Below, one piece after another: positions 598-32,000 of a DNA stretch of 32,000 nt. This DNA comes from Methanomassiliicoccus sp. Lineage in GTDB: Archaea > Thermoplasmatota > Thermoplasmata > Methanomassiliicoccales > Methanomassiliicoccaceae. The stretch spans positions 16,264 through 48,263 of the forward strand of contig JAEILR010000004.1 in NCBI GenBank assembly GCA_016109435.1. The letters run 5' to 3'. Made by a program: the position numbers and the translations under genes. Below the pieces are notes generated by a model. It did no database searches. It was not told the origin of the DNA and was given only the letters and a program-made list of their open reading frames with translations. Numbering within the stretch: position 1 is the first letter of the stretch; each line of letters opens with the position of its first letter.

Positions 598-1408
598 ATG
601 AAGTTGATCAGCGTCCGCCTGATGGTCGATCGGTTCAATGAGTGCTTCCGCTTCTACCAGGATGATCTGGGCCTGAAGGTCAAGTGGGGAGAACTGGACG
701 GGGACTATGCCTCGTTCTCCCTGGACGGCGAGGGATATCTCTCGATCTTCAGACGGGAACTGATGGCCAGGGACGTCCGCACCGGTCACCTCCCGGCCGA
801 TGCGGTGGCTCAGGACCGCTCCGCCGTCATTCTGCAGGTCGGCGATGTGGACACCGTGTGCCGGCGCGTCGCCGAAAGAGGGGTGCGGTTCGTGAACCCG
901 CCGACGGACTACCCCGATTATCGAACGGGAGCAAGAAAGCCCACGATTTCAATCGTGGATGAATTGCGACGGAGCGGTACTTTCGGACAACCCTCCTAAA
1001 GATGTTAATATGCTCTGGGCGATGAGTTGTCAGCCACTATACTGCCGCACTTCAATGGGCGTGCAAGTTCTGGCATCGAACATGCTTCCCTCGGAAGCAT
1101 GGTTGACCACGCTGACGCCAACGCCTCGTTCAACATCGCGCTGCGTCCTTCCTCGGAAGAAGGCGCTGGTCGATTGCACCAAGACAGAGATTGGTGCAAG
1201 GGCCGCATTGATACGCCCCGAGAGGCTCCGTCATGAACGACGACGACCTCAGAATCCCACGACTGAAGGTCGTGGGAATGTCAAGGGGATAAGAGCAGCG
1301 CACCTGCGCGATCCCGATGGCAATCTCATCGAGATCAGCATGCCCATGCCCAGGGAGGGATGGACGGCGGAGCTGAAGGAGGACACCGACCGCTTCCAGA
1401 AGGGATGA
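598..1408 (+). pseudogene. VOC (glyoxalase/bleomycin-resistance/dioxygenase) family gene interrupted by a ~364-nt insertion
   Basis: The N-terminal part (598-921) reads MKLISVRLMVDRFNECFRFYQDDLGLKVKWG...GVRFVNPPTDYPDY in frame 1. It then runs into unrelated residues and a TAA at 997-999. The conserved VOC C-terminus GIRAAHLRDPDGNLIEISMP... is in frame 2 from 1286 to the stop at 1408. Deleting 922-1285 (364 nt, 1 mod 3) rejoins the frames. Confidence 0.8.
922..1285 (+). mobile_element. Non-autonomous IS200/IS605-like element (PATE-type), ORF-less and highly structured; boundaries +/-3 nt
   Basis: It interrupts the VOC gene and is visibly lower in GC than its flanks. It has no TIR, no TSD and no credible ORF. 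Two similar same-strand subterminal hairpins are present: 941-958 (CCACGAT-ttca-ATCGTGG, 19 nt from the left junction) and 1256-1276 (CCCACGAC-tgaag-GTCGTGGG, 9 nt from the right junction). The left flank ends TTAT and the element ends TCAAG. Confidence 0.6.
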
Positions 1409-1445: not shown

Positions 1446-2117
1446 TCAGTGGCGGGGGAACCATAGGTCGAGCTGTTTATCCAGCGCGGCGAAAGTGCTC
1501 TCCAGCATGTACGTGTCGCCGTGGATTGCTCCTTCTATCCTGACCGCGTTCCGCCCCAGGGCCTTCAGCGCATCACCCGACTCCACGATCTCCGGGACGT
1601 CGCGGGAGCCGTAGATGACCATGGTGCGCTCGCTGCCCTCCTCCCGATAGGCGGGGAGGGTCCTCAGGAAGTCGAACACCGTATCCGGGTCGTCCGGCCG
1701 GACGCGGTAGCTCCTGAGCTTCTGGAGCAGCTCCCTGGTCCTTACGCAGTAGCTGGGGTCAAGGGGAGGGGAGATGCCGACCGCGAAGTCGGCCTCGCTG
1801 ATCAGGGCAAGCCGTCCCCCCAGGGAATGACCGATGGCCACCACCCGGCCGAACCGGCGGCAGTGGGCCACGGCGGCATCGACGTCGGTGAGCACCCCGG
1901 CGTCCAGGGGTAAAGGGTGCTGGCCGTGCCCCCTCAGGTCGATGGCGCAGGCGGCGAGACCTGCTTCCGCGATCCTGAACGCCAGCCCGAGCTGCTCCTC
2001 CTTGCATCCGCCGTAGCCATGGGAGATCACCGCCGCGCCCCGCGGAGCGGGCGGAACGATGATGATGGCCGGGATGATGTGGCCCCCCTTTCTGATATCA
2101 GCTCGTTGCACGTCCAT
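1446..2117 (-). CDS. alpha/beta hydrolase (dienelactone-hydrolase-like serine hydrolase)
   Basis: It contains VISHGYGG...IDLRGHGQH and the nucleophile elbow GHSLGG. I chose the start at the internal ATG (MDVQRADIRKGG...) rather than the long Arg/Pro-rich extension to 2279. Confidence 0.75.
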   Translation of the reverse strand: MDVQRADIRKGGHIIPAIIIVPPAPRGAAVISHGYGGCKEEQLGLAFRIAEAGLAACAIDLRGHGQHPLPLDAGVLTDVDAAVAHCRRFGRVVAIGHSLGGRLALISEADFAVGISPPLDPSYCVRTRELLQKLRSYRVRPDDPDTVFDFLRTLPAYREEGSERTMVIYGSRDVPEIVESGDALKALGRNAVRIEGAIHGDTYMLESTFAALDKQLDLWFPRH

Positions 2118-2277
2118 GCTATCTGTGGTACGGAGGATGGCCTTGGAGCGATAAGAACCTGGCAGTCTCGCGGTCCATGCTGGCATCGGCGAACGCTCCC
2201 GCACGGTCGAAAGCGGTGGCCGTGTGCCGGACCCCCTCGCCGGCCCGAGGCGCGGGGACAGGTCTCCTCTCCGCTCC

Positions 2278-2288
2278 ATTAATATAAT
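2278..2288 (+). promoter_or_regulatory. TATA box for the UbiD-family gene (leaderless)
   Basis: attaatataat is centred about 26 nt upstream of the ATG at 2309. Confidence 0.5.
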
Positions 2289-2308
2289 GCTATGGGTGAT
2301 TACCGGCC

Positions 2309-3571
2309 ATGGCCCTGCGCAATCTTCTCGCTCAGATGACCGATGCCATCACCGTCGAACAGGACGTCCCTCTGGACCTCGAGGTCTCCAAGGTCCTGAT
2401 GAAGGACCAGACCCGGCCGGTCATGTTCACCAACCTCAACGGCATGCGGGCCGCGGGCAACATATGGTCCACCCGGGAGAGGATCGCCGGGGCGATGAAG
2501 ATCCGTAAGGAGGACCTCATCCCCAAGATGCTGGAAGCGATGTCCTTCCCCTCCGCGCCGAAGCTGGTGGGCGACGCGCCGTTCATGGACGACGTGCGCA
2601 CCGAGTTCGACCTGACCAAGTTGCCGATACCCAAGTACTTCCCCGGGGACAAGGGGAGGTACATAACCTCCGCGGTGGCGGTGGCCGAGCACGAGGGGAA
2701 GCGGAACGTGTCGTTCCACCGCATGTATCTTCGCGATGAGCGGTCCTTCGCCCTGCGTCTGGTGCCCAGGCACCTGTACACTATGTGGAAGAGCATGACC
2801 GCGAGGGGCAGGGACCTCCCGGTGGCCTTCACCATGGGCCTGTGCCCGCCCATCCTCCTGGCCGCGGCTACCTCGACCGATTACGGCACCGATGAGATGT
2901 ACATCGCCTCCTCGCTCAAGGAGAGGACCCTGGGAACGCCGCTGGAGGTGGCCAAGATCGACAACGGTCTGGCCGTGCCGGCGCAAGCGGAGATCGTGTT
3001 CGAGGGAAGGATCACCTCTCAGATGGTGGACGAGGGGCCGTTCATGGACATCACCGGCACCTACGATTCCGTGCGGCCAGCGCCGGTGTTCGAGGTCGAC
3101 CGCCTGTACATGCGCAAGGACCCGGTGTTCCACCTCCTCCTTCCGGGTGGTTACGAGCACTACATGATGATGGGGCTGCCACGCGAACCGATCATCTACC
3201 GCACCGTGAACCAGGTCGTGCCCCGCGTCCACGGCGTCAGGCTGACCGAAGGCGGCTGCTGCTGGCTTCATGGCGTGGTGTCCATCACCAAGAACAAGGA
3301 AGGGGACGGCATCAACGCGGCCATGGCCGCGTTCTCCGGCCATCCGTCGATGAAGAAAGTCACCATCGTGGACCACGACATCAACATCTTCGACGATCGC
3401 GAGGTCGAATGGGCCGAGGCAACCAGGTTCCAGGCCGCCCGCTCTCTGATGGTGGTCAACAACGCCGCCGGTTCCTCCCTGGACCCCAGCTCCGAGGGCA
3501 CGACGTCGAAGGTCGCGATAGACGCCACCAAGCCGTTCGGGGCCAAGGGCTTCGACCGTGCCGTTCTGTGA
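2309..3571 (+). CDS. UbiD-family (prFMN-dependent) decarboxylase
   Basis: This 420-aa protein carries UbiD hallmarks: GRYITSAVAVAEHEGKRNVSFHRM, EGPFMDITGTYD and TIVDHDINIFDDREVEWA. Its size class matches archaeal UbiD-like enzymes such as anhydromevalonate-phosphate decarboxylase. The substrate cannot be assigned. Confidence 0.8.
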   Translation: MALRNLLAQMTDAITVEQDVPLDLEVSKVLMKDQTRPVMFTNLNGMRAAGNIWSTRERIAGAMKIRKEDLIPKMLEAMSFPSAPKLVGDAPFMDDVRTEFDLTKLPIPKYFPGDKGRYITSAVAVAEHEGKRNVSFHRMYLRDERSFALRLVPRHLYTMWKSMTARGRDLPVAFTMGLCPPILLAAATSTDYGTDEMYIASSLKERTLGTPLEVAKIDNGLAVPAQAEIVFEGRITSQMVDEGPFMDITGTYDSVRPAPVFEVDRLYMRKDPVFHLLLPGGYEHYMMMGLPREPIIYRTVNQVVPRVHGVRLTEGGCCWLHGVVSITKNKEGDGINAAMAAFSGHPSMKKVTIVDHDINIFDDREVEWAEATRFQAARSLMVVNNAAGSSLDPSSEGTTSKVAIDATKPFGAKGFDRAVL

Positions 3572-4902: not shown

Positions 4903-5949
4903 ATGGTTACGAACATTGCGATCAATGGCATGGGCCGCATCGGGCGGATAATCACCAGGCGCTACCTGACCGACCCTCCGGCAGGCATCCGGCTAGTAGC
5001 GGCGAACGACCTGTTCCCAACCGAGGACATCGCCTACCTGATGCGTTACGATTCGGTGCACGGCAGAGCGCCGTTCCCGGTCGAGCATGGTGCGAACGCC
5101 CTACACTTCGGCTCACGCGAGGTCGTGGTGTTCGGAGAGAAGGACCCGGCGGACATCCCCTGGAGGGACCTCGACGTGGACATCGTGCTGGAATGCACCG
5201 GGGCTTTCAGGGACCGGGAGAATGCGGCCAGACACCTGGAGGCCGGCGCGTCCAAGGTGATATTGAGCGCGCCGTCGGACAGCGCGGACCTCAGCATGGT
5301 CATGGGCGTGAACGAGAACATGTACGATCCGTCGAAGCATCACATCGTTTCCGCGGCCTCGTGCACCACCAACTCCCTCGCTCCGGTGGCCAAGGTCCTC
5401 AACGACTCGTTCGGCGTCGAGCTGATGATGGCCACCACCGTGCACGCGTACACCTCCAGCCAGAAGCTGGTGGACGGACCGGCCAGGAAGATCAGGAGGG
5501 GCAGGGCGGCGGCGGTGTCCCTTGTCCCCACCAGCACCGGGGCGGCCAACGCCACGGTGAGGACCATTCCCGAGCTGGAGGGTAAGATGTTCGCCACCGC
5601 CATCCGCGCGCCGATCCCCGACGGGGCGCTCACCGATATCACCGCCCTGCTGCGGCAGGACGTCACCGAGCAGAGCGTCAACGCGGCCCTGCAGGCCGCG
5701 GCCGGAGGGGCCATGAAGAACATTATGGGCTTCAGCGAGGACGAGCTGGTCTCCGCGGACATCATCACCGACCCGCACTCCGCGGTCATCGATTCGAGGT
5801 CCACCAAAGTGATCGGCGACCGTATGGTGAAGGTCCTGGCCTGGTACGACAACGAGTACGGCTTCTCCTGCCGCATGCTGGACATGGCCTCGTTCATGGC
5901 CGGGAAGGGAGGGCTGAAGGAAGCGAGGAAGGAGAAGGTCCCGGCCTGA
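4903..5949 (+). CDS. gap: type I (bacterial/eukaryotic-type) glyceraldehyde-3-phosphate dehydrogenase
   Basis: Motifs are INGMGRIGR, the active site ASCTTNSLAP, and WYDNEYGFSCRM. Confidence 0.92.
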   Translation: MVTNIAINGMGRIGRIITRRYLTDPPAGIRLVAANDLFPTEDIAYLMRYDSVHGRAPFPVEHGANALHFGSREVVVFGEKDPADIPWRDLDVDIVLECTGAFRDRENAARHLEAGASKVILSAPSDSADLSMVMGVNENMYDPSKHHIVSAASCTTNSLAPVAKVLNDSFGVELMMATTVHAYTSSQKLVDGPARKIRRGRAAAVSLVPTSTGAANATVRTIPELEGKMFATAIRAPIPDGALTDITALLRQDVTEQSVNAALQAAAGGAMKNIMGFSEDELVSADIITDPHSAVIDSRSTKVIGDRMVKVLAWYDNEYGFSCRMLDMASFMAGKGGLKEARKEKVPA

Positions 5950-5972
5950 GGGGGCCGCTGGGGGGAGGGAAG

Positions 5973-8420
5973 ATGATGCGCGAGGCTGGGAAGCAGGAGC
6001 GGACAGCGGGCCGGGGGTCCGAACACATACGCTGGTTCAGCGACATCCGGATGGAGGACGTGCCCATCGTCGGCGGCAAGAACGCCTCCCTGGGGGAGAT
6101 GTACCGGGAACTTACGAGCAAAGGGGTCAGGATTCCCAACGGGTTCGCCGTCACCGCCGACGGCTACCGCCACATGCTCTCCGCGACCGGCATCAGGGAC
6201 CGGTTGGGAAGCACCCTGGAGGGCGTGAGCAAGGAGGACCTGCCGGACCTGGCGGCCAGGGGGAAGAGGGCTAGGGACCTGATCCTGGGCGCGGGTATCC
6301 CGGACGACCTATGGATCGAGATCAGGGAGGCCTACGACCGGCTGTGCGACGAGTACGGCGAAAACACCGACGTGGCGGTCCGCTCCAGCGCGACCGCCGA
6401 GGACCTGCCCAACGCCTCCTTCGCCGGGCAGCAGGAGACCTACCTGAACGTTCGTGGCCATCCCGCGCTGAGGGAGGCCTGCGCCAAGTGCTTCGCCTCC
6501 CTCTTCACCGACCGGGCCATCTCCTACCGCATCGACCAGGGGTTTGGCCAGTTCGACGTCGCCCTCTCCATCGGAGTGATGAAGATGGTGCGCTCCGATC
6601 TCGCCTCCAGCGGCGTCATGTTCACTCTGGACACTGAGACCGGTTTCCGTGACGTGGTGTTCGTGACCGCCTCCTACGGGTTGGGGGAGAACATCGTCCA
6701 GGGTGCGGTGGACCCCGACGAATATTACGTGTTCAAGCCGACCTTGCGCAACGGTCACGAGCCGATCATCAAGAAGGAGGTCGGGGGGAAAGAGAAGAAG
6801 CTCATCTATGGCCACGGGGGGACGAAGGATATGACCCGCAACGTGGAGGTGCCCCAGGAGGACAGGGAACGCTTCTGCCTGACCGACCGGGAGGTCCTGG
6901 ACCTCGCCAGATACGCCATGACCATTGAGGATTATTATTCCGCCAAGTTCGGTCACGAGATGCCGATGGACATCGAGTGGGCCAAGGACGGGGTCAGCGG
7001 GGAACTGTTCATCGTCCAGTCCCGGCCGGAAACGGTGCAATCACAGAAACCCCAGGACGTTCTGGAAACCTACATGCTGGAGGAACAGGGGGAGGTGCTG
7101 GTGCGCGGGCACAGCGTGGGAACGAAGATCGCCTCGGGGAAGGCCAGGGTGATCACCGACATCTCCCAGCTGCCCTCCTTCCGGCCGGGGGAGATACTCA
7201 TCTCCGACAGCACCACCCCGGACTGGGAGCCAGTGATGAAGATCGCCGCGGCCATCGTGACCAATCTCGGAGGGCGTACCTCTCACGCGGCCATCGTCAG
7301 CCGGGAGTTGGGCATACCGGCGGTGGTAGGGACCGATAACGCCACTCGGAAGCTCCATGATGGCGACGCCATCACGGTGAGCTGTGCCGAGGGCGATGAC
7401 GGTTTCGTCTACAGGGGCGCGCTCCCGTTCAGGGTCGAGCGCACCAGCCTCGCCGACCTCCGCCGGCCTAGGACGGAGATGATGATGAACCTGGGCAATC
7501 CCGACGAGGCGTTCTCCAGGTCGTTCATCCCCAACGACGGGGTCGGCCTGGCCAGGCTGGAGTTCATCATCGGCAGCTACATCCGGGTACACCCCATGGC
7601 CCTGCTGCACCCGGACCGGGTGGAAGAGGAGGAAAGGAAGGAGATAGACCGCCTCACCTCCGCCTACGCCGACAAGCCCATGTACTTCGTGGAAAAGCTG
7701 GCCCAGGGGATCGCCACCATCGCTGCGGCGTTCTATCCCAAGGAGGTGGTCGTGCGGATGAGCGACCTGAAGACCAACGAGTACGCCAGCCTGCTCGGCG
7801 GACGGGCCTTCGAGCCAGTGGAGAACAATCCCATGCTCGGGTTCAGGGGAGCGTCCCGGTACTACTCGGACCGCTACAGGGAAGGGTTCGGCCTGGAGTG
7901 CAAGGCCATCAAGATCGTCCGGGAACGGATGGGCCTGACCAACGTCGTTCCCATGGTCCCCTTCTGCCGGACGATCGACGAGGCGAGGAAGGTCGTCGAG
8001 GAGATGAAGGGCAGGGGTCTGGAAAGGGGGGTGGACGGCCTGAAACTGTTCATCATGTGCGAGGTCCCCAACAACGTCCTGCTGATTGACCGGTTCAGCG
8101 AGCACTTCGACGGCTTCTCCATCGGTTCCAACGACCTTACCCAGCTGGTCCTGGGGATAGACCGGGACTCCGAGATACTGGCCGAAGAGTTCGACGAGAG
8201 GGACCCCGGGGTCTTGATGGCCATGGCCATGGCCGTCAAGGGGGCCAAGAGCAATGGGAGGCACAGCGGGATCTGCGGGCAGGCCCCCAGCGACTACCCA
8301 GAGATAGCCGAGTTCCTGGTGCGGGAGGGTATCGACTCGATCTCCGTGGACCCCGAGACGCTGATGAAGATCACCCTCAAGGTGCTGAAGATGGAGGACA
8401 GGCTGAAGGACGGGACATGA
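5973..8420 (+). CDS. ppsA: phosphoenolpyruvate synthase (pyruvate, water dikinase)
   Basis: This 815-aa protein has VGGKNASLGEM, VAVRSSATAEDLPNASFAGQQETYLNV, the phospho-His region GGRTSHAAIVSRELGIPAVVG and a C-terminal PEP-utilising domain. GGGGGAGGGA lies upstream of the start. Confidence 0.95.
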   Translation: MMREAGKQERTAGRGSEHIRWFSDIRMEDVPIVGGKNASLGEMYRELTSKGVRIPNGFAVTADGYRHMLSATGIRDRLGSTLEGVSKEDLPDLAARGKRARDLILGAGIPDDLWIEIREAYDRLCDEYGENTDVAVRSSATAEDLPNASFAGQQETYLNVRGHPALREACAKCFASLFTDRAISYRIDQGFGQFDVALSIGVMKMVRSDLASSGVMFTLDTETGFRDVVFVTASYGLGENIVQGAVDPDEYYVFKPTLRNGHEPIIKKEVGGKEKKLIYGHGGTKDMTRNVEVPQEDRERFCLTDREVLDLARYAMTIEDYYSAKFGHEMPMDIEWAKDGVSGELFIVQSRPETVQSQKPQDVLETYMLEEQGEVLVRGHSVGTKIASGKARVITDISQLPSFRPGEILISDSTTPDWEPVMKIAAAIVTNLGGRTSHAAIVSRELGIPAVVGTDNATRKLHDGDAITVSCAEGDDGFVYRGALPFRVERTSLADLRRPRTEMMMNLGNPDEAFSRSFIPNDGVGLARLEFIIGSYIRVHPMALLHPDRVEEEERKEIDRLTSAYADKPMYFVEKLAQGIATIAAAFYPKEVVVRMSDLKTNEYASLLGGRAFEPVENNPMLGFRGASRYYSDRYREGFGLECKAIKIVRERMGLTNVVPMVPFCRTIDEARKVVEEMKGRGLERGVDGLKLFIMCEVPNNVLLIDRFSEHFDGFSIGSNDLTQLVLGIDRDSEILAEEFDERDPGVLMAMAMAVKGAKSNGRHSGICGQAPSDYPEIAEFLVREGIDSISVDPETLMKITLKVLKMEDRLKDGT

Positions 8421-14225: not shown

Positions 14226-15335
14226 TCAACTCCCCTTTACCGAACGATAGATGTCTAGGACCTCCCGAAGGTCGAGATCGGTCCTGATTCCGGTAGGGGA
14301 GAAATGCGTCCTTGATACCTTCCCTGCGGCCCCCAGCGCCTCGAACACCGCGTCCAGCCTCCTGGGGGATACCCTCACCATGGAGGCCAGTTCGTCATTG
14401 TCGTAGAAGAAGGGGACGTCCAGTTCCTTCCTCCACAGCTCCAGGTACTTGGCGCAGCGCCCCCTGGTCTGGAGGTTCTCCCCGGCGTTCATGTTGGCTA
14501 GGAGATCGTGATCGTGCAGCGGACCCAGCCACAGGGGGCCGATGGAACGGGGAGAGGTCCTCTCCGCCGACGCCCGGCGCTCTCCGGTGACAGGGTCGTA
14601 ATCGATGTAACCCAGGCGGTCGAGGGTCCGGTCGGCCTCTCCCCCGCCCTCCCTGACCCGCACGTAGGTCCGCATGTAGTGATCGGCGTAGAACGACAGC
14701 AGGCACTCCAGCCCCTTATCCTCCTTCGCCGCCTCCCTGGCGATATGGCCTATGAGGATCCTCAGCCCGCTCTCGTGGCCGAAGGGGGAGCGCATGGAGA
14801 AGGCGCCGTAGCGGCGCTGGCACTTCTTGGGGTAAGTCCCGGCGAGCGGCGCGGTGTCAGTAGCGGTGAACCCCGCGGCCCCGTGGCGCCTCAACCCCTG
14901 CAGCGCGGAGGGGATGAAGTGCACCGGACTGCCGAACGGATCGATGTCCACGTAATCAAAGACCTTCCTGGCCAGAACGCACCGGAGATCGTCATTGCTC
15001 ACCTCCACCTTATCGGCGCGGGCGTGCTCCGCGTTCGCCCGGATGTAGTCGCAGGCCCGGGGATCGCGATCGTTGGCCACGATGGTCATGTCCGGCCTGG
15101 CCTCGTTAGCGACCCGCACCGCCCTGGTGCCGGTGCTGGCCATGGCATCGAGTGCAGTCCTCGCTCGCGGATAGGCCTTCAGCAGCATGACCGTGACATC
15201 GCGATTGAAGGCCATCTGGTCGTTGAAGAAAACGGCCCCGGTGCGCTTGCCAGGTCCCTTCACCGAGTGCAGCGCGGGAACGAAGAGCTCGGTGGCACCT
15301 TCCATCACGAGCTCGGAATTGTCAGGTACGGTCAC
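14226..15335 (-). CDS. trm1: tRNA (guanine26-N2)-dimethyltransferase
   Basis: Motifs are VFFNDQMAFNRDVTV, ALDAMASTGTRAVRVANE and DIDPFGSP. I chose the start at the GTG that overlaps the upstream stop (GTGA), giving 369 aa. An alternative ATG is at 15305. The track ORF extension to 15587 overlaps the NTPase gene and is Arg-rich junk. Confidence 0.85.
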   Translation of the reverse strand: MTVPDNSELVMEGATELFVPALHSVKGPGKRTGAVFFNDQMAFNRDVTVMLLKAYPRARTALDAMASTGTRAVRVANEARPDMTIVANDRDPRACDYIRANAEHARADKVEVSNDDLRCVLARKVFDYVDIDPFGSPVHFIPSALQGLRRHGAAGFTATDTAPLAGTYPKKCQRRYGAFSMRSPFGHESGLRILIGHIAREAAKEDKGLECLLSFYADHYMRTYVRVREGGGEADRTLDRLGYIDYDPVTGERRASAERTSPRSIGPLWLGPLHDHDLLANMNAGENLQTRGRCAKYLELWRKELDVPFFYDNDELASMVRVSPRRLDAVFEALGAAGKVSRTHFSPTGIRTDLDLREVLDIYRSVKGS

Positions 15336-15877
15336 AGAAGCTCGCCCTTCATGAGCTTCATGATCTTGTAGGGAAGAAGGTTCCGGTTGATCGGCGTGAC
15401 CTCGAGAATGCGCACGTCGTCCCGCCGCCGGATGTCCTGCAGAAGAGGATTGCGGGATTTCTTGTGAAGTGTCAGCAGAAGGGGTTTTTCGATGTCCAGA
15501 GCGTATTTTACAGTGTCGATGAAGGTCGGGGACTCTACTTCCATGCGGCCTACCTCGTCGATGACGATGACGTCGGCGTCCTCGCATGCCTTCATCAAAG
15601 CTTTGACCCCTACCTCTTCCAGAACGTCCAGGTCCACCCCGAACTTCCCTACTGAGAACTTCGAGTGGATGTTCACATGCGCGAACACTCCCTTCTCCTT
15701 GCTCGCCCAGTCGATGATGGCGAAGCCGGTCCGCTTGTTGTCCTCGATGATGGGCTCGGTGACCATACCCCCTACGGCCACCCCCTCGGCCTCCAGCATC
15801 TCTATGACCTTGAGCAAAGCATGGGTCTTGCCCGCGCCAGGCAGACCCGTGATACCGATCTTGATAGTGGTGTTCAT
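15332..15877 (-). CDS. nucleoside-triphosphatase, THEP1/MJ1559 family
   Basis: It reads MNTTIKIGITGLPGAGKTHALLKV...GGMVTEPI...KRTGFAI...VGKFGV...VIVIDEVGRME. An alternative start is at 15892 (MSGDKMNTT). Confidence 0.8.
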   Translation of the reverse strand: MNTTIKIGITGLPGAGKTHALLKVIEMLEAEGVAVGGMVTEPIIEDNKRTGFAIIDWASKEKGVFAHVNIHSKFSVGKFGVDLDVLEEVGVKALMKACEDADVIVIDEVGRMEVESPTFIDTVKYALDIEKPLLLTLHKKSRNPLLQDIRRRDDVRILEVTPINRNLLPYKIMKLMKGELL

Positions 15878-25139: not shown

Positions 25140-26282
25140 ATGTCAGACAGGGTTACTGTTTCAGTCATTAAGGCCGATGTGGGATCGGTCGGGGGCCACG
25201 CGCGGCCTCACCCATTGATGATGAAGAAGGCGGAAGAGCGGCTTGCCGACGGTCTGAAGGCAGGCACCATCGACGACTTCTATGTCACCAGGGTGGGGGA
25301 TGATATCAACCTGTTCCTCACCCACACCCGCGGGGAGAACAACCGGGACATCCACGGTCTATGCTGGGAGGCGTTCATGGACGCCACCAAGGAAGCCAAG
25401 AGGATGAAGCTCTATGCCGCCGGCCAGGACCTCCTGACCGACGCCTTCTCGGGCAATGTCCGGGGGGCCGGTCCGGGCGCCGCAGAGATGGAGTTCAAGG
25501 AGCGGGGCGCCGAGCCCATCGTGTTCCTCATGGCCGACAAGACCGAGCCTTCGGCCTATTCCCTTCCTCTATGCAGGACGTACATGGACCCGTTCACCAC
25601 CACCGGCCTGGTCATCGACCCCCGGGCCCACGAGGGTTTCAAGTTCGAGATCGTGGACGTGTGCGACTCCAAGAAGGTGATCATGTCCACTCCTGACGAG
25701 ACATATGACATGCTCACTCTTCTGGGCGACACCACCAGGTATGCCATCAAGAAGATATGGTCCAAGAGCGTGGACATCGGCCTGGGCGCGGTAGTGTCCA
25801 CGGAGAAGCTGAACATCTCCGCCGGCAAGTACGTGGGCAAGGACGATCCGGTATGCGTCTGCAGGGCTCAGAGCGGCCTCCCCGCGGTCGGGGAGATCCT
25901 CCAGCCATACATGTTCCCGGCCTTGGTGTCCGGGTGGATGAGGGGCTCCCACTATGGTGGATGGTACCCCTGCTCGGTGGCCGATTCCGACCCGGTGTTC
26001 TTCGACGGCCCGCCCCGCATCTGCGCGGTCGGCCTGCACGTGAGCAACGGCGTGTTCCAGGGTCTTGAGGACCCCAGCCACGGTCCGGGACAGCACACTC
26101 CCCTCGATTACTTCGAGGGAAGCTGCTGGGACGAGGCCAGGAGGGGAGCGGTCAAGGCGTCCATCTACATGCGCCGGCACGGGCCGTTCATGCCCGCGGT
26201 GCTCGGTCCCGAGGAGATGGAGTACACCACCCGCCCGTCCGTGCTCAACAAGCTGAAGGAACGGATGGAGAAGCTTGAGTAG
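25140..26282 (+). CDS. fbp: fructose-1,6-bisphosphate aldolase/phosphatase (class V FBPase)
   Basis: This 380-aa protein has VSVIKADVGSVGGHARPHP, FLTHTRGENN, MADKTEPSAYSLPL and GWMRGSHYGGWYP. Confidence 0.93.
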   Translation: MSDRVTVSVIKADVGSVGGHARPHPLMMKKAEERLADGLKAGTIDDFYVTRVGDDINLFLTHTRGENNRDIHGLCWEAFMDATKEAKRMKLYAAGQDLLTDAFSGNVRGAGPGAAEMEFKERGAEPIVFLMADKTEPSAYSLPLCRTYMDPFTTTGLVIDPRAHEGFKFEIVDVCDSKKVIMSTPDETYDMLTLLGDTTRYAIKKIWSKSVDIGLGAVVSTEKLNISAGKYVGKDDPVCVCRAQSGLPAVGEILQPYMFPALVSGWMRGSHYGGWYPCSVADSDPVFFDGPPRICAVGLHVSNGVFQGLEDPSHGPGQHTPLDYFEGSCWDEARRGAVKASIYMRRHGPFMPAVLGPEEMEYTTRPSVLNKLKERMEKLE

Positions 26283-29436: not shown

Positions 29437-30965
29437 TGGTAGGCCTGATCGTCCCGCATGTGCTCGTTCCAGAAATAGTACGGGGATTTCTCCTTCTGGG
29501 CCGATGAGATGTCCGTCCCCAGGCCCTTCATGTAGGTGCCGTAGCGGTCCCTGATCTGCTCCTCGGCCGTCCGGCTCCTCTTGAGCGCCGCCGCGACATG
29601 GTGCGCCTCGATGATCCTGTCCCCGGACGCGACCGCCAGGTCTCCGGAGGAGCGGATCAGTCCGCCCAGCTCGCGCAGTCTGAGGGTCAGCGCGTTCTCC
29701 TTGCCGTCCATTATCCTGGCCCGGGTCCTGGCCTCCTTGATGATGGCCTCAATGGCCGCGTGGGAGGCATGGGGGATCCGGCCGTCGGTGGCTATTTCCT
29801 GGGCCACGAACTGCGCCAGCCTGGCCCGGTTCAGGTCATCGTCAGGCATGAACGTCTCTACCAGCACCTCGTAGCCGTCACCGTTGATGCGGGACCGCAG
29901 GGGGGACAGGACCTGCTCCAGGTCCTGGATGTTGCATGCCGCTACCAATATGAAGTTCGCGGGCACGGCGTCCACCCGGACCGAGGCTCCCGCCGACTGG
30001 GGGTTGCGCCCAGAGATGGGCGCGCGCTTCTCCTGCATCGCCGTGAGGATGAACCGCTGCATGGGACCGAGGTGGGAGATCTCGTCGAGGAAAAGGACTC
30101 CCTCGTGGGCCTCATGGATCGATCCAGGGATGACCCTCTCGTACGGCTGGGTGCCGAGCTGGGAGTGCCCACCGAAGGGGTCGTGGCGGACATCGCCGAG
30201 AAGCTCCGTCTCCGACGCGCCGGTGGCCAGGACGAAGGGGTTGCGCTCCAGGGGCACGATGACCTTCTTCGGCCGCTGCCTCTCGAACTCCCTCCTCCTC
30301 TCCAGGGCGTCCTGGTCCAGGACCCTGATCTTGTCCCCGGCGCGCTCGAACACCACCACCTCCTCCTTGTCCAGCCGCTTGCGGGTGGTGGTCACCTTCT
30401 CCTTCCCCGCGTTCAGCCCCGGGGCGGCGCTGGCCATGGACTCCATGAGATTGCCCAGCAGGTCCCCGAAGGGATTGTTGGGTTGCATGCCGGTGTCCGA
30501 CTTGGGCTTCTCGCACAGGGGACAGGTACGCTCGGAGGGGGAAGAAAAACCGCCGCAGTTGCGGCAGCGGTAGCCTAAACGCTCGGCCACGTTCGGCGGC
30601 GCGGACTGGGGGTCGATGAGATCGCCCTCGGCCGATCCCCTGGTTTCCCTCTCCCTGCGGACCTCGGCCTCCCCCTTCACTTCCACCAGGGGGCGCTCGG
30701 GGTTCTCCGGGTTGTGGACCACGCGGACCTCCTCGCGGGGCTGGGGAAGGTGGAGGGCGAGGGCCTGGGCGATCATCGACTTCCCCGTTCCCGGGGGGCC
30801 GACGAGCAGCAGGTTCCTTCTCTGCCGTGCAGCTATCCGCGCTAGTTCCACCGCTTCGTCCTGACCGATGACCCGGGCGAGCGGATCATTGGGGATCAGG
30901 ATGTCCGCGGTGGTGTTGACGGACCGGAGGTCCGTTTCCTTCCGCAGGTCCACCTTCTCGCTCAT
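29433..30965 (-). CDS. LonB-like AAA+ ATPase lacking a protease domain, with a zinc-ribbon insert
   Basis: It has [15 protein letters not shown]...[19 protein letters not shown] (Walker A), EGVLFLDEI (Walker B) and [12 protein letters not shown]...[12 protein letters not shown]...[12 protein letters not shown], all LonB-like. CRNCGG...CPLCEKP lies between Walker A and B. The protein ends at 510 aa with no Ser-Lys protease domain. Its ATG overlaps the dnaG stop (ATGA). Confidence 0.75.
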
Positions 30966-32000
30966 TCGTTCAGATCTTCCTTGGTCCAGATCTCCACCGC
31001 GGCGGGCTGCTTGGCGATGTTGCCCATCTTGGTGCCCACGATGGTGGCGATCTTGTTGTCCGCGGCGATATCCAGTATCCTCTGGGTGACTATGCCGTCG
31101 AACACCACGGCGTTCACTCCCTTGGCGCTGGTCTTGAGGGTGTTGACCAGGTCCCTGACCGGGACCTCCTTCATGACCTCGCCGGAGGCGTCCAGTATCT
31201 TGGCCTTGGAGGTGGCCGAGAGCTCGTTGATGATGGTCTTATAGAGCGCCTGGGCCTCCGAGAGCTTCTTGGTCGGCTCGGGCTCCGCAGGCTCCGGCTC
31301 ATAGGCCGCCACGGCCTTCTCCGGCAGCTCGCTCACCGGCTCCGCGGCGGGAAGCTCCTTGATCGGCTCGCGGGGCTCCCGGATCTCGCGCGGCTCGCGG
31401 CCACGGCGGTCACGGGGCTCACGGTGCGGGCGCTGGTCCCTCTCCGGGGGTCTCTCCTGAGGCCGTTCCCGGGCCTCGGCGGCCTCCTCGCGCTCCCTCG
31501 CCTGTTCCCTGGGCTGCTCCCTCGCCTGTTCCCTGGGCTGCTCCCTCGCCTGTTCCCTCGGCTCCCTGACCTGCTCCCGGGGGCCCCTCTCCTCGCGGTT
31601 CTCGGCGGCGGCCTTGCCGTTCTCCGAGGTCATGCCGTACATCTCCATGAACTGCTCCCCGGGGATCTTGTTGCGGAGGCACTTCATGATCTGCTTCTGG
31701 GTCAGCTCCTCGACCTCCATGCCCCGGGGGGCACGGGCCACGAAGTCGACCTCGGCCACCTGGAACAGCTCGCGGAGGATCAGCTCCCCGCCCCTGTCCC
31801 CGTCGACGAAGGCGGTGATAACCCTCTCCTTGCTGAGGTCCATGACCGTCTTGGGAACGTTGGTCCCCTCGACCGCGATGGCGTTCTTGATCCCCGACTT
31901 CAGCAGGTTAAGGACGTCGGAACGACCTTCCACCACGATGATGGCGTCGCTGTCCTGGACATTGGGCCCGGCCGGCAGGCGCTCCTTGCCATAGTTGATG
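30962..32000 (-). CDS. dnaG: archaeal DnaG primase (TOPRIM), C-terminal part; gene continues beyond the window end
   Basis: It has the TOPRIM core [27 protein letters not shown]...[16 protein letters not shown] and the conserved C-terminal domain [15 protein letters not shown]. The reading frame is open to position 32000. Confidence 0.9.
31493..31564. repeat. three tandem copies of a 24-nt unit inside dnaG
   Basis: CTCCCTCGCCTGTTCCCTGGGCTG occurs twice exactly (31493-31516 and 31517-31540), plus a diverged third copy (31541-31564). On the coding strand it encodes the PREQAREQ repeats. Confidence 0.85.

Follow-up and report, generated by a model that had tools for sequence, protein, structure and literature searches.

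A gene-less IS200/IS605 derivative with a predicted omega-RNA module interrupts a VOC-family gene in a Methanomassiliicoccus genome

A 32,000-nt stretch of DNA from Methanomassiliicoccus sp. (GenBank assembly GCA_016109435.1, contig JAEILR010000004.1, positions 16,264 to 48,263; here called the window, whose numbering we use throughout) contains a VOC/glyoxalase-family gene that is split by an insert of about 364 nt. Here, we report that this insert is, on the strength of its sequence, a gene-less IS200/IS605 (IS608-like) derivative, that is, one of the palindrome-associated transposable elements (PATEs), and that comparison with related tnpB loci supports an omega-RNA (right-end element RNA, reRNA) scaffold at positions 1102–1284. 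The original prediction for this DNA, made by a model that saw the window alone, had proposed a miniature IS200/IS605 element carrying a guide-RNA-like gene with its own promoter. The features of the host gene, the element and the RNA described below are all on the + strand.

The 5′ part of the interrupted gene (556–921; Pfam PF00903, E = 1.8e-9) is 100% identical to protein P0005 (publicly MBI0583147.1) and stops with ...TDYPDY at 921; the 3′ part (1286–1408), which is publicly fused into the hypothetical protein ISF22_02865 (MBI0583148.1), restarts at 1286 with GIRAAHLRDPDGNLIEI... in a different frame. Three intact VOC orthologues (P0002–P0004, 73–77% identity) read DYPDYGIRAAHLRDPDG gaplessly across the junction (DYPDY/GIRAAHLRDPDG), and the DNA of an orthologue with an empty site, L086, reads GAC TAC/GGC ATT at the same point. 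Because the intact orthologues and L086 continue over the junction without a gap, the insert is real, measures about 364 nt and is not accompanied by a target-site duplication; its removal restores the host open reading frame (ORF). The element sits in the sense orientation relative to the VOC gene. Both halves match entries of a Methanomassiliicoccus sp. metagenome-assembled genome (MAG) exactly, where they are annotated as two proteins, MBI0583147.1 (598–999, VOC family protein, 133 aa) and MBI0583148.1 (1058–1408, hypothetical, 117 aa). Each of these runs into the element, which itself has no public annotation.

The element (922–1284) is defined by the homology of its ends, by the empty site in L086 and by the lack of a transposase ORF. 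It measures 363 nt by the right-end rule of its family or 364 nt (to 1285) by the reading frame of the host gene, is too short to encode a transposase and retains as its sole coding trace a 44-codon tnpB remnant. The left end (LE, 922–1011) is homologous to that of full-length relatives: blastn matches element positions 5–90 (window 926–1011) to L007 (2148–2227), L016, L006, L010 and others, and in these relatives the match lies 1.0–1.4 kb upstream of the scaffold match, that is, at the left end of the full-length element. Element positions 181–364 (window 1102–1285) match the tnpB 3′ end together with the right end (RE) in about 60 loci. The two segments, 926–1011 and 1102–1284, are found together in L007, which encodes a 340-aa PF07282 protein (TnpB) between its ends, and in L006, which carries both PF01797 and PF07282; L016 and L010, matched at the left end, have a PF07282 TnpB as well. 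The proposal of a miniature IS200/IS605 element is borne out, with both ends matching those of full-length tnpB or tnpA and tnpB elements. In L006, a single 464-aa ORF (1879–3273) contains PF01797, the domain of Y1 transposases, as well as PF07282, that of TnpB, either as a TnpA–TnpB fusion or through loss of the tnpA stop codon.

The two ends show the organization of an IS608-like transposon, with subterminal imperfect palindromes on the same strand and no terminal inverted repeats. On the left, the tetranucleotide TTAT occupies the target or target-adjacent motif (TAM) position (918–921), where the family uses TTAC (17–19 nt 5′ of the foot of the LE hairpin in all ten relatives with a mapped left end). 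It is followed by the left guide tetranucleotide AAAG (936–939), conserved in relatives as GAAAG, and by the LE hairpin CCACGAT-TTCA-ATCGTGG (941–958), which aligns to the hairpin of the relatives. On the right, GAAT (1252–1255), presumably the equivalent of the IS608 right guide G_R, precedes the RE hairpin CCCACGAC-TGAAG-GTCGTGGG (1256–1276), which TnpA recognizes at the DNA level and which corresponds to helix P8 in our RNA model. The right cleavage tetranucleotide TCAA (1281–1284) ends the element in its closest relatives, the flanks of ten of which diverge directly past TCAA (TCAT in L001), so the right end probably lies at 1284. The two CCACGA..TCGTGG hairpins are the only matches to that pattern in the 32 kb, where 0.08 would be expected. 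Alternative borders at 920 or 921 on the left and at 1283 on the right were ruled out because they introduce a stop codon or disrupt the frame of the VOC gene. Around the right border (1281–1288), the VOC frame is regained only with 1285 counted as part of the insert; this additional G of the GGGG run at 1285–1288 may stem from a pseudogene mutation, from an error in the assembly or from a right end of unusual form. A search of genome contigs with a 19-nt right-end word returned four matches, all in unrelated bacteria and about the number expected by chance.

The right half of the element derives from a tnpB gene. Positions 1102–1236 translate as VDHADANASFNIALRPSSEEGAGRLHQDRDWCKGRIDTPREAPS followed by a stop and resemble the RuvC-III end of TnpB; by translation and homology we identify them as the last 44 codons of tnpB (VDHADANASFNIALR...EAPS, with the RuvC-III motif) and its TGA stop codon. 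A database search showed the remnant to be 91% identical over its tail to P0001, an 89-aa fragment with PF07282 (the Cas12f1-like TNB domain of TnpB), the contig of which aligns to window 1101–1283 at roughly 90% identity, and TnpB of L007 finds the remnant by tblastn with an E value of 9e-22. Pfam gave no match for the 69-aa ORF of the element, and the homology emerged only with the database search. A metagenome scan with two peptides provided the best 80 loci, all of them full tnpB C termini; any shorter, PATE-like matches would rank below these. The tnpB 3′ ends closest to 1102–1284 are those of L007, L008, L006, L001 and L012 at about 85–91% identity (L008, 91%; L006, 90%; L007, 89%), and the blastn match begins at element position 181 in all but two loci, in which it begins at 176.

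To describe the RNA that this region may encode, we used a covariance model, R1, built from 28 tnpB loci that do not include the window (184 model positions). R1 matches the window once in 32 kb, on the + strand and over model positions 1–184 of 184, with a cmsearch score of 186.5 bits (E = 7e-67), close to the 188–193 bits of the nearest relatives. In the 81 loci searched, it gives one match per locus, in each case at the tnpB 3′ end (39–219 bits for all matches, 66–219 bits for full-length ones). The predicted relationship between the scaffold up to the right end and tnpB 3′ ends is therefore supported by sequence identity, by the roughly 60 matching loci and by the R1 score. The proposed scaffold start near 1035 does not stand, as the conserved 5′ boundary is 1102, at once the first base of helix P1 and the homology breakpoint, and a full-length scaffold extends from there to 1284.

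The helices of the model are maintained by compensatory change. In a MAFFT alignment of 29 sequences that was not fitted to structure, from which the RNAalifold consensus was taken, 95.3% of cells are paired as compared with 33–44% when partners are slid by 1–3 columns, and both partners have changed in 28 of the 55 pairs. An alignment of 78 loci contains 59 pairs in 11 helices, with 94.7% of cells paired (34–40% slid) and compensatory changes in 41 of the 59 pairs, against 18–22 in the slid controls; none of 500 shuffles reaches any of the observed measures. The expectation that the helices would be kept by compensation, where the original prediction had placed a possible failure, is thus confirmed for the helices of this fold. 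Folding energy points in the same direction and carries little weight taken alone: a 386-nt region folds better than dinucleotide shuffles, with z scores of −3.76 on the + strand and −2.94 on the − strand. Rfam 15 yielded nothing at gathering thresholds over the 32 kb, and a permissive search of 900–1330 returned chance-level hits only (E 0.8–7).

The predicted scaffold consists of a 5′ domain, a series of hairpins and the RE hairpin. The 5′ domain (1102–1174) is closed by P1 (1102–1108/1168–1174) and P1b (1110–1113/1162–1165) and contains P2 (1114–1118/1143–1147 and 1122–1124/1138–1140) and the P3 hairpin (1148–1151/1156–1159); the helices of this domain, like P5, P6 and P7, rest on RNAalifold and pair counts. 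In the MAFFT alignment, the segment 1114–1118/1143–1147 varies by G-U wobble only and shows no double compensatory change. The 5′ domain is followed by the P4 hairpin (1175–1198; 1175–1182/1191–1198), with an invariant loop, GACAGRGA, by the P5 hairpin (1200–1218; 1200–1203 and 1205 with 1214 and 1215–1218) and by P6 and P7 (1222–1250; 1222–1225/1247–1250 and 1229–1233/1241–1245). P4 covaries at all eight of its pairs, with 99.3% of cells paired; the same segment of tnpB encodes LHQDRDWCK, FKLDRDSLK or LYVDRDTYK in different loci, one of many cases in which the C-terminal peptide of TnpB shifts while the stem is kept. P8, the RE hairpin (helices 10 and 11 of the model), covaries as well. A pseudoknot, missing from the earlier description and lying outside the covariance model, joins TCGTTCA (1126–1132) in the 5′ domain to the P7 loop, TGAACGA (1234–1240), which also holds the tnpB stop codon. 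It is paired in 91% of cells, and four of its seven pairs show compensatory changes, with both-side changes that include U-A/G-C, C-G/G-C and G-C/A-U.

The window copy retains 58 of the 59 consensus pairs. It differs from its five nearest relatives at 15 positions, of which nine are unpaired and six lie in pairs without breaking any, and two double compensatory changes are specific to it (1149/1158, C-G to U-A; 1263/1269, A-U to C-G). All of the motifs listed in the original prediction are present in the sequence where it had placed them, and the model now separates those that belong to a conserved fold from those that do not. The 9-bp stem at 1174–1199 (1174–1182/1191–1199) and the right-end hairpin at 1256–1263/1269–1276 both covary strongly in relatives. 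Only the inner part (1148–1151/1156–1159) of the imperfect stem proposed at 1143–1166 covaries; its outer GCG/CGC pairing competes with the conserved 1114–1118/1143–1147. The stem at 1081–1101 is a perfect 9-bp helix, as described, and has a CTTCC(C)TCGGAAG context in common with the P3 region (1085–1097 and 1148–1159), but it lies outside the conserved scaffold and has no counterpart sequence in relatives.

Past the right end, the DNA 3′ of TCAA/GTCAG is unrelated among the loci, and in the window it is sequence of the VOC gene. The proposal that this flank serves as the guide is therefore upheld as to its locus-specific nature, while its first base may be 1285 rather than 1286. Following the flank-as-guide rule (PMC8612924; 10.1101/2023.03.14.532601), the predicted guide segment is GGGGATAAGAGCAGCGCACC (1285–1304, starting at 1285 or 1286). 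The position from the tnpB 3′ end to the right end, the locus-specific flank and the covariation together lead us to assign 1102–1284 as the omega-RNA (reRNA) scaffold of this TnpB clade, a reading that this comparative analysis supports.

The clade comprises compact proteins of about 335–340 aa (L007, L010, L016 and P0028–P0147; 1,990 database clusters at E ≤ 1e-30), and its scaffold, which in most loci measures about 173–186 nt, is not represented by any Rfam family. In some relatives (L026, 2459–2720; L032, 3136–3397; also L020, L021, L031, L045, L046 and L070), roughly 20–80 nt are inserted between P7 and the RE hairpin, and the model matches there span 200–262 nt as compared with the usual 183. 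L019 contains a second, partial match to P4–P5 (2027–2081), which begins some 60 nt downstream of its tnpB element's right end and may be a fragment of another copy.

Upstream of the scaffold, the element combines an inherited segment with one that has no recognizable source. The TATA-like box TTAATAT (1005–1011) aligns with the TTAATAT that L007 has 24 nt upstream of its tnpB start codon, and L016 and L010 have A/T-rich boxes at the equivalent position. Its earlier description as a promoter is plausible in the light of this alignment, and it may read into the scaffold. Because the core of the parent element has been deleted, the tnpB promoter now lies within about 90 nt of the scaffold. Between the two is a linker (1012–1101; element positions 91–180) for which blastn-short and blastx found no significant match in 85 loci, in 149 proteins (mostly TnpB homologues) or in the rest of the window. 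An origin of the linker from antisense TnpB residues 28–52 was considered and set aside, the matches being weak (E 0.5–5) and judged noise.

The linker ends in the perfect 9-bp hairpin at 1081–1101 (1081–1089/1093–1101), directly next to the scaffold. When 90 nt upstream of the scaffold were added for the full-length loci, a different hairpin appeared at this place. This hairpin, P0, has the form GTGYCC-N3-7-GGRCAC with 6–8 bp and ends one base before P1 (L007 3120–3138); 55 of the 78 loci have it, as do all 11 of the closest relatives. P0 encodes the last Cys-x-x-Cys-Gly-His of TnpB, a portion of its zinc finger, and the wobble bases of the Cys and Gly codons partly covary. The hairpin in the window is unrelated to it in sequence and is either a functional replacement of P0 or a by-product of rearrangement; we estimate the chance of a perfect 9-bp, short-loop stem at one fixed position at roughly 2e-5.

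Taken together, we consider it probable (at about 0.8) that this is a gene-less IS608-like element that carries a left end with the tnpB promoter box and a full omega-RNA module and that would use TnpB and TnpA in trans. On this model, which draws on established TnpB biology, the module at 1102–1284 would be a scaffold for the roughly 340-aa TnpB of the family. Transcription would proceed from the left-end promoter, beginning near 1035, or would run in from the VOC gene, which is oriented the same way, and the RNA would be trimmed to the scaffold plus a guide of about 16–20 nt, copied from the flank, that begins at 1285 or 1286. The RNA would be taken up by TnpB from a full-length relative at another place in the genome, and mobility would likewise rely on TnpA supplied in trans. 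After excision by TnpA, the restored site, TTAY+GGGATAAG... (TTAY-GGG(G)ATAAGAGC...), would become a target for cutting by TnpB, and repair of the cut by recombination with a sister copy would restore the element. The candidate target past TTAC/TTAT would be GGGGATAAGAGCAGCG. A candidate for the protein in trans is P0037 (MBI0584788.1, 339 aa), annotated as a transposase of Methanomassiliicoccus sp. Its tail, ...RSHQDRDWCKGRIDAPQEATS, is about 84% identical to the remnant, and its coding sequence is predicted to form the same P4 stem. The accession of P0037 comes 1,641 numbers after MBI0583147.1, and ISF22_02865 is approximately the 573rd gene; P0037 is possibly from the same MAG as the window.

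Several observations weigh against this model. The window flank is TTAT and not the TTAC of the family, a difference that might impair cleavage by TnpA as well as recognition of the TAM and that reflects either a synonymous C-to-T change after insertion or insertion at an off-consensus target. The LE hairpin is one G shorter than that of the relatives, and the right end given by the family (1284) differs by 1 nt from that given by the host frame (1285). The element lacks the P0 sequence, and the unrelated 1081–1101 hairpin ends at the same position. We found no tnpB or tnpA elsewhere in the 32-kb window, and neither the window nor the 85 loci nor the database proteins yielded a second copy of the element with this linker. 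Only one copy is seen, so that mobility as a PATE is putative.

Many of these points would also follow if the element were an inert relic, in which a full-length insertion sequence entered the VOC gene, lost its core in place and never moved as a miniature, its RNA fold being inherited and unused. The single copy and the unique linker fit such a history, as do the apparent signs of decay (the TTAT flank, the shortened LE hairpin and the 1-nt frame discrepancy). The remnant ORF, still open and about 90% identical to relatives, fits a recent event, and core deletions are frequent in IS605-type elements of Haloquadratum (PMC3119063). What speaks against a relic is the precision of the deletion, which left exactly a complete scaffold with its breakpoint at the first base of P1, together with the promoter box kept upstream and the 9-bp hairpin standing at the place of P0 at a chance of about 2e-5. 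Moreover, all 15 lineage-specific changes leave the pairing unbroken, an observation qualified by the possibility that the changes predate the deletion. On balance, we regard an unused relic as unlikely, though it deserves serious weight.

A bolder extension of the trans-acting model is that the element is a selected, promoter-fused, stand-alone guide-RNA gene in which P0 was functionally replaced by the 9-bp hairpin and which is loaded in trans by a roughly 340-aa TnpB of the same genome. We consider this doubtful. If it were true, the locus would exemplify how one structure can naturally stand in for another within an omega RNA, and would amount to a minimal guide cassette for a TnpB clade that is among the smallest.

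The remaining alternatives are much less probable. The hairpins might work solely at the DNA level, marking the transposon ends for recognition and cleavage by TnpA, with no RNA being involved; the subterminal hairpins and the guide and cleavage tetranucleotides are indeed DNA signals in IS608 (PMC3201880). TnpA, however, needs just a subterminal hairpin and some 10–20 nt around it, whereas P1–P7 and the pseudoknot reach 150 nt further in, and the covariation has occurred at the cost of the C-terminal peptide of TnpB, as one would expect of omega RNA overlapping a tnpB 3′ end (PMC8612924). A purely DNA-level role for the whole structure therefore seems very improbable. Still harder to sustain is the fold of the original prediction, in which a long-range helix between GACGGAGC (968–975) and GCTCCGTC (1225–1232) closes a domain with three hairpins inside. 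The 8-bp complementarity exists, but at least one such long-range 8-mer arises in 34% of shuffles of the element, the left arm is not conserved in L007, L016, L010 and L006 although the right arm is, and 1225–1232 is used by the local, covarying P6 and P7. In addition, 968–975 lies upstream of the proposed transcription start, and the helix is absent from the minimum-free-energy fold; we conclude that it is spurious and at chance level. Equally improbable is a domesticated, stand-alone guide RNA with a regulatory role in place of one in transposon maintenance, steering a TnpB-like protein to a target in the host. There is precedent in the reported domestication of TnpB into RNA-guided regulators (10.1101/2023.11.30.569447), and the promoter–scaffold fusion, resembling a dedicated RNA gene, would agree with it. 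Against it, the guide is simply the interrupted host gene, both transposon ends are kept, the element is single-copy in a metagenome-assembled genome and no associated protein gene lies nearby.

The gene-less element with an omega-RNA module that we favour has close parallels among known systems. PATEs were defined in the archaeon Haloquadratum walsbyi, with HqIRS71 as an example (Dyall-Smith et al. 2011, PMC3119063). Like the element described here, they are gene-less archaeal IS605-type derivatives with subterminal palindromes, without inverted terminal repeats or target duplication; an origin by core deletion is common to both, and some of theirs keep an extended terminal segment with some of the tnpB sequence that codes for the C terminus. 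That description predates omega RNAs and assigns no role to RNA, and the H. walsbyi elements are multi-copy with strain-specific insertions, whereas we find one copy; the hosts also differ (Halobacteria as compared with Methanomassiliicoccales). In Geobacillus stearothermophilus, Meers et al. (2023; 10.1101/2023.03.14.532601) noted PATEs that encode an omega RNA. These share with our element the left and right ends, the lack of a protein gene, an omega RNA for TnpB supplied in trans by another IS copy and the same proposed role, the cutting of the donor joint to retain the element. They are, however, bacterial and multi-copy, and the TnpA and TnpB activity of their full-length relatives was shown experimentally, whereas our assignment comes from sequence alone. 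Together with the H. walsbyi elements, they mean that an archaeal example is not new.

The terminal signals are closest to those of IS608 from Helicobacter pylori, which inserts 3′ of TTAC, with G_L = AAAG and right cleavage at TCAA (PMC3201880). Shared features are the TTAC (in the relatives) about 19 nt 5′ of the left hairpin, the AAAG left guide, the TCAA right cleavage site and, in full-length relatives such as L006, tnpA (Y1) and tnpB. IS608 is an autonomous element of 1.8 kb, unlike the one described here, in which both genes are deleted and TTAT forms the flank; the distance from TCAA to the hairpin foot is 8 nt here as compared with 10 nt in IS608.

For the RNA, the nearest characterized system is ISDra2 TnpB, in which the reRNA or omega RNA comes from the tnpB 3′ end and the right end, the guide from the flanking DNA, and the TAM equals the target site (Karvelis et al. 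2021, PMC8612924). The RNA predicted here has the same position and would likewise take its guide from the flank. It has no detectable sequence similarity to that of ISDra2, and the TnpB of its clade is smaller, at about 340 aa. The ISDra2 protein is reportedly 408 aa long, and its scaffold is said to contain a pseudoknot in cryo-EM work. In archaea, sense overlapping transcript RNAs (sotRNAs) were detected at the 3′ end of IS1341-type tnpB genes of Halobacterium salinarum, including a probable one in a tnpB pseudogene truncated to 120 bp, where the RNA was suggested as the reason for retention of the relic (Gomes-Filho et al. 2015, PMC4615843). These, too, are archaeal non-coding RNAs that overlap a tnpB 3′ end; they were detected experimentally, whereas the RNA described here is predicted, with strong covariation.

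PATEs with omega RNAs and archaeal relics that keep a 3′ RNA are thus already in the literature. New here are the lineage, an RNA model for a compact TnpB clade without an Rfam match, and the odd substituted hairpin. In an archaeal methanogen of the Methanomassiliicoccales, the locus presents a clean, well-delimited transposon reduced to two ends and a predicted guide-RNA module, and illustrates how such elements can rely on TnpA and TnpB made elsewhere. As a by-product, the analysis provides a covariation-backed, 183-nt omega-RNA model that includes a pseudoknot and describes a large clade of compact (335–340 aa) TnpB proteins; this model could aid the annotation of such RNAs and the choice of small candidates for genome editing.

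The host is an archaeon, and the wider gene content of the window is in keeping with an archaeal chromosome. The neighbourhood includes genes for GAPDH, a phosphoenolpyruvate (PEP)-utilising enzyme of the pyruvate, phosphate dikinase (PPDK)/PEP synthase type and an archaeal-type fructose-1,6-bisphosphate aldolase/phosphatase (fructose-1,6-bisphosphatase, PF01950) at 4903–8420 and 25140–26282, and Trm1 is encoded at 14226–15587. Close to the far end of the window, a tandem array of a 12/24-nt unit, GCTCCCTCGCCTGTTCCCTGGGCT, is present in three copies with 97% identity (31492–31584) and sits within a long minus-strand ORF (30962–31936).

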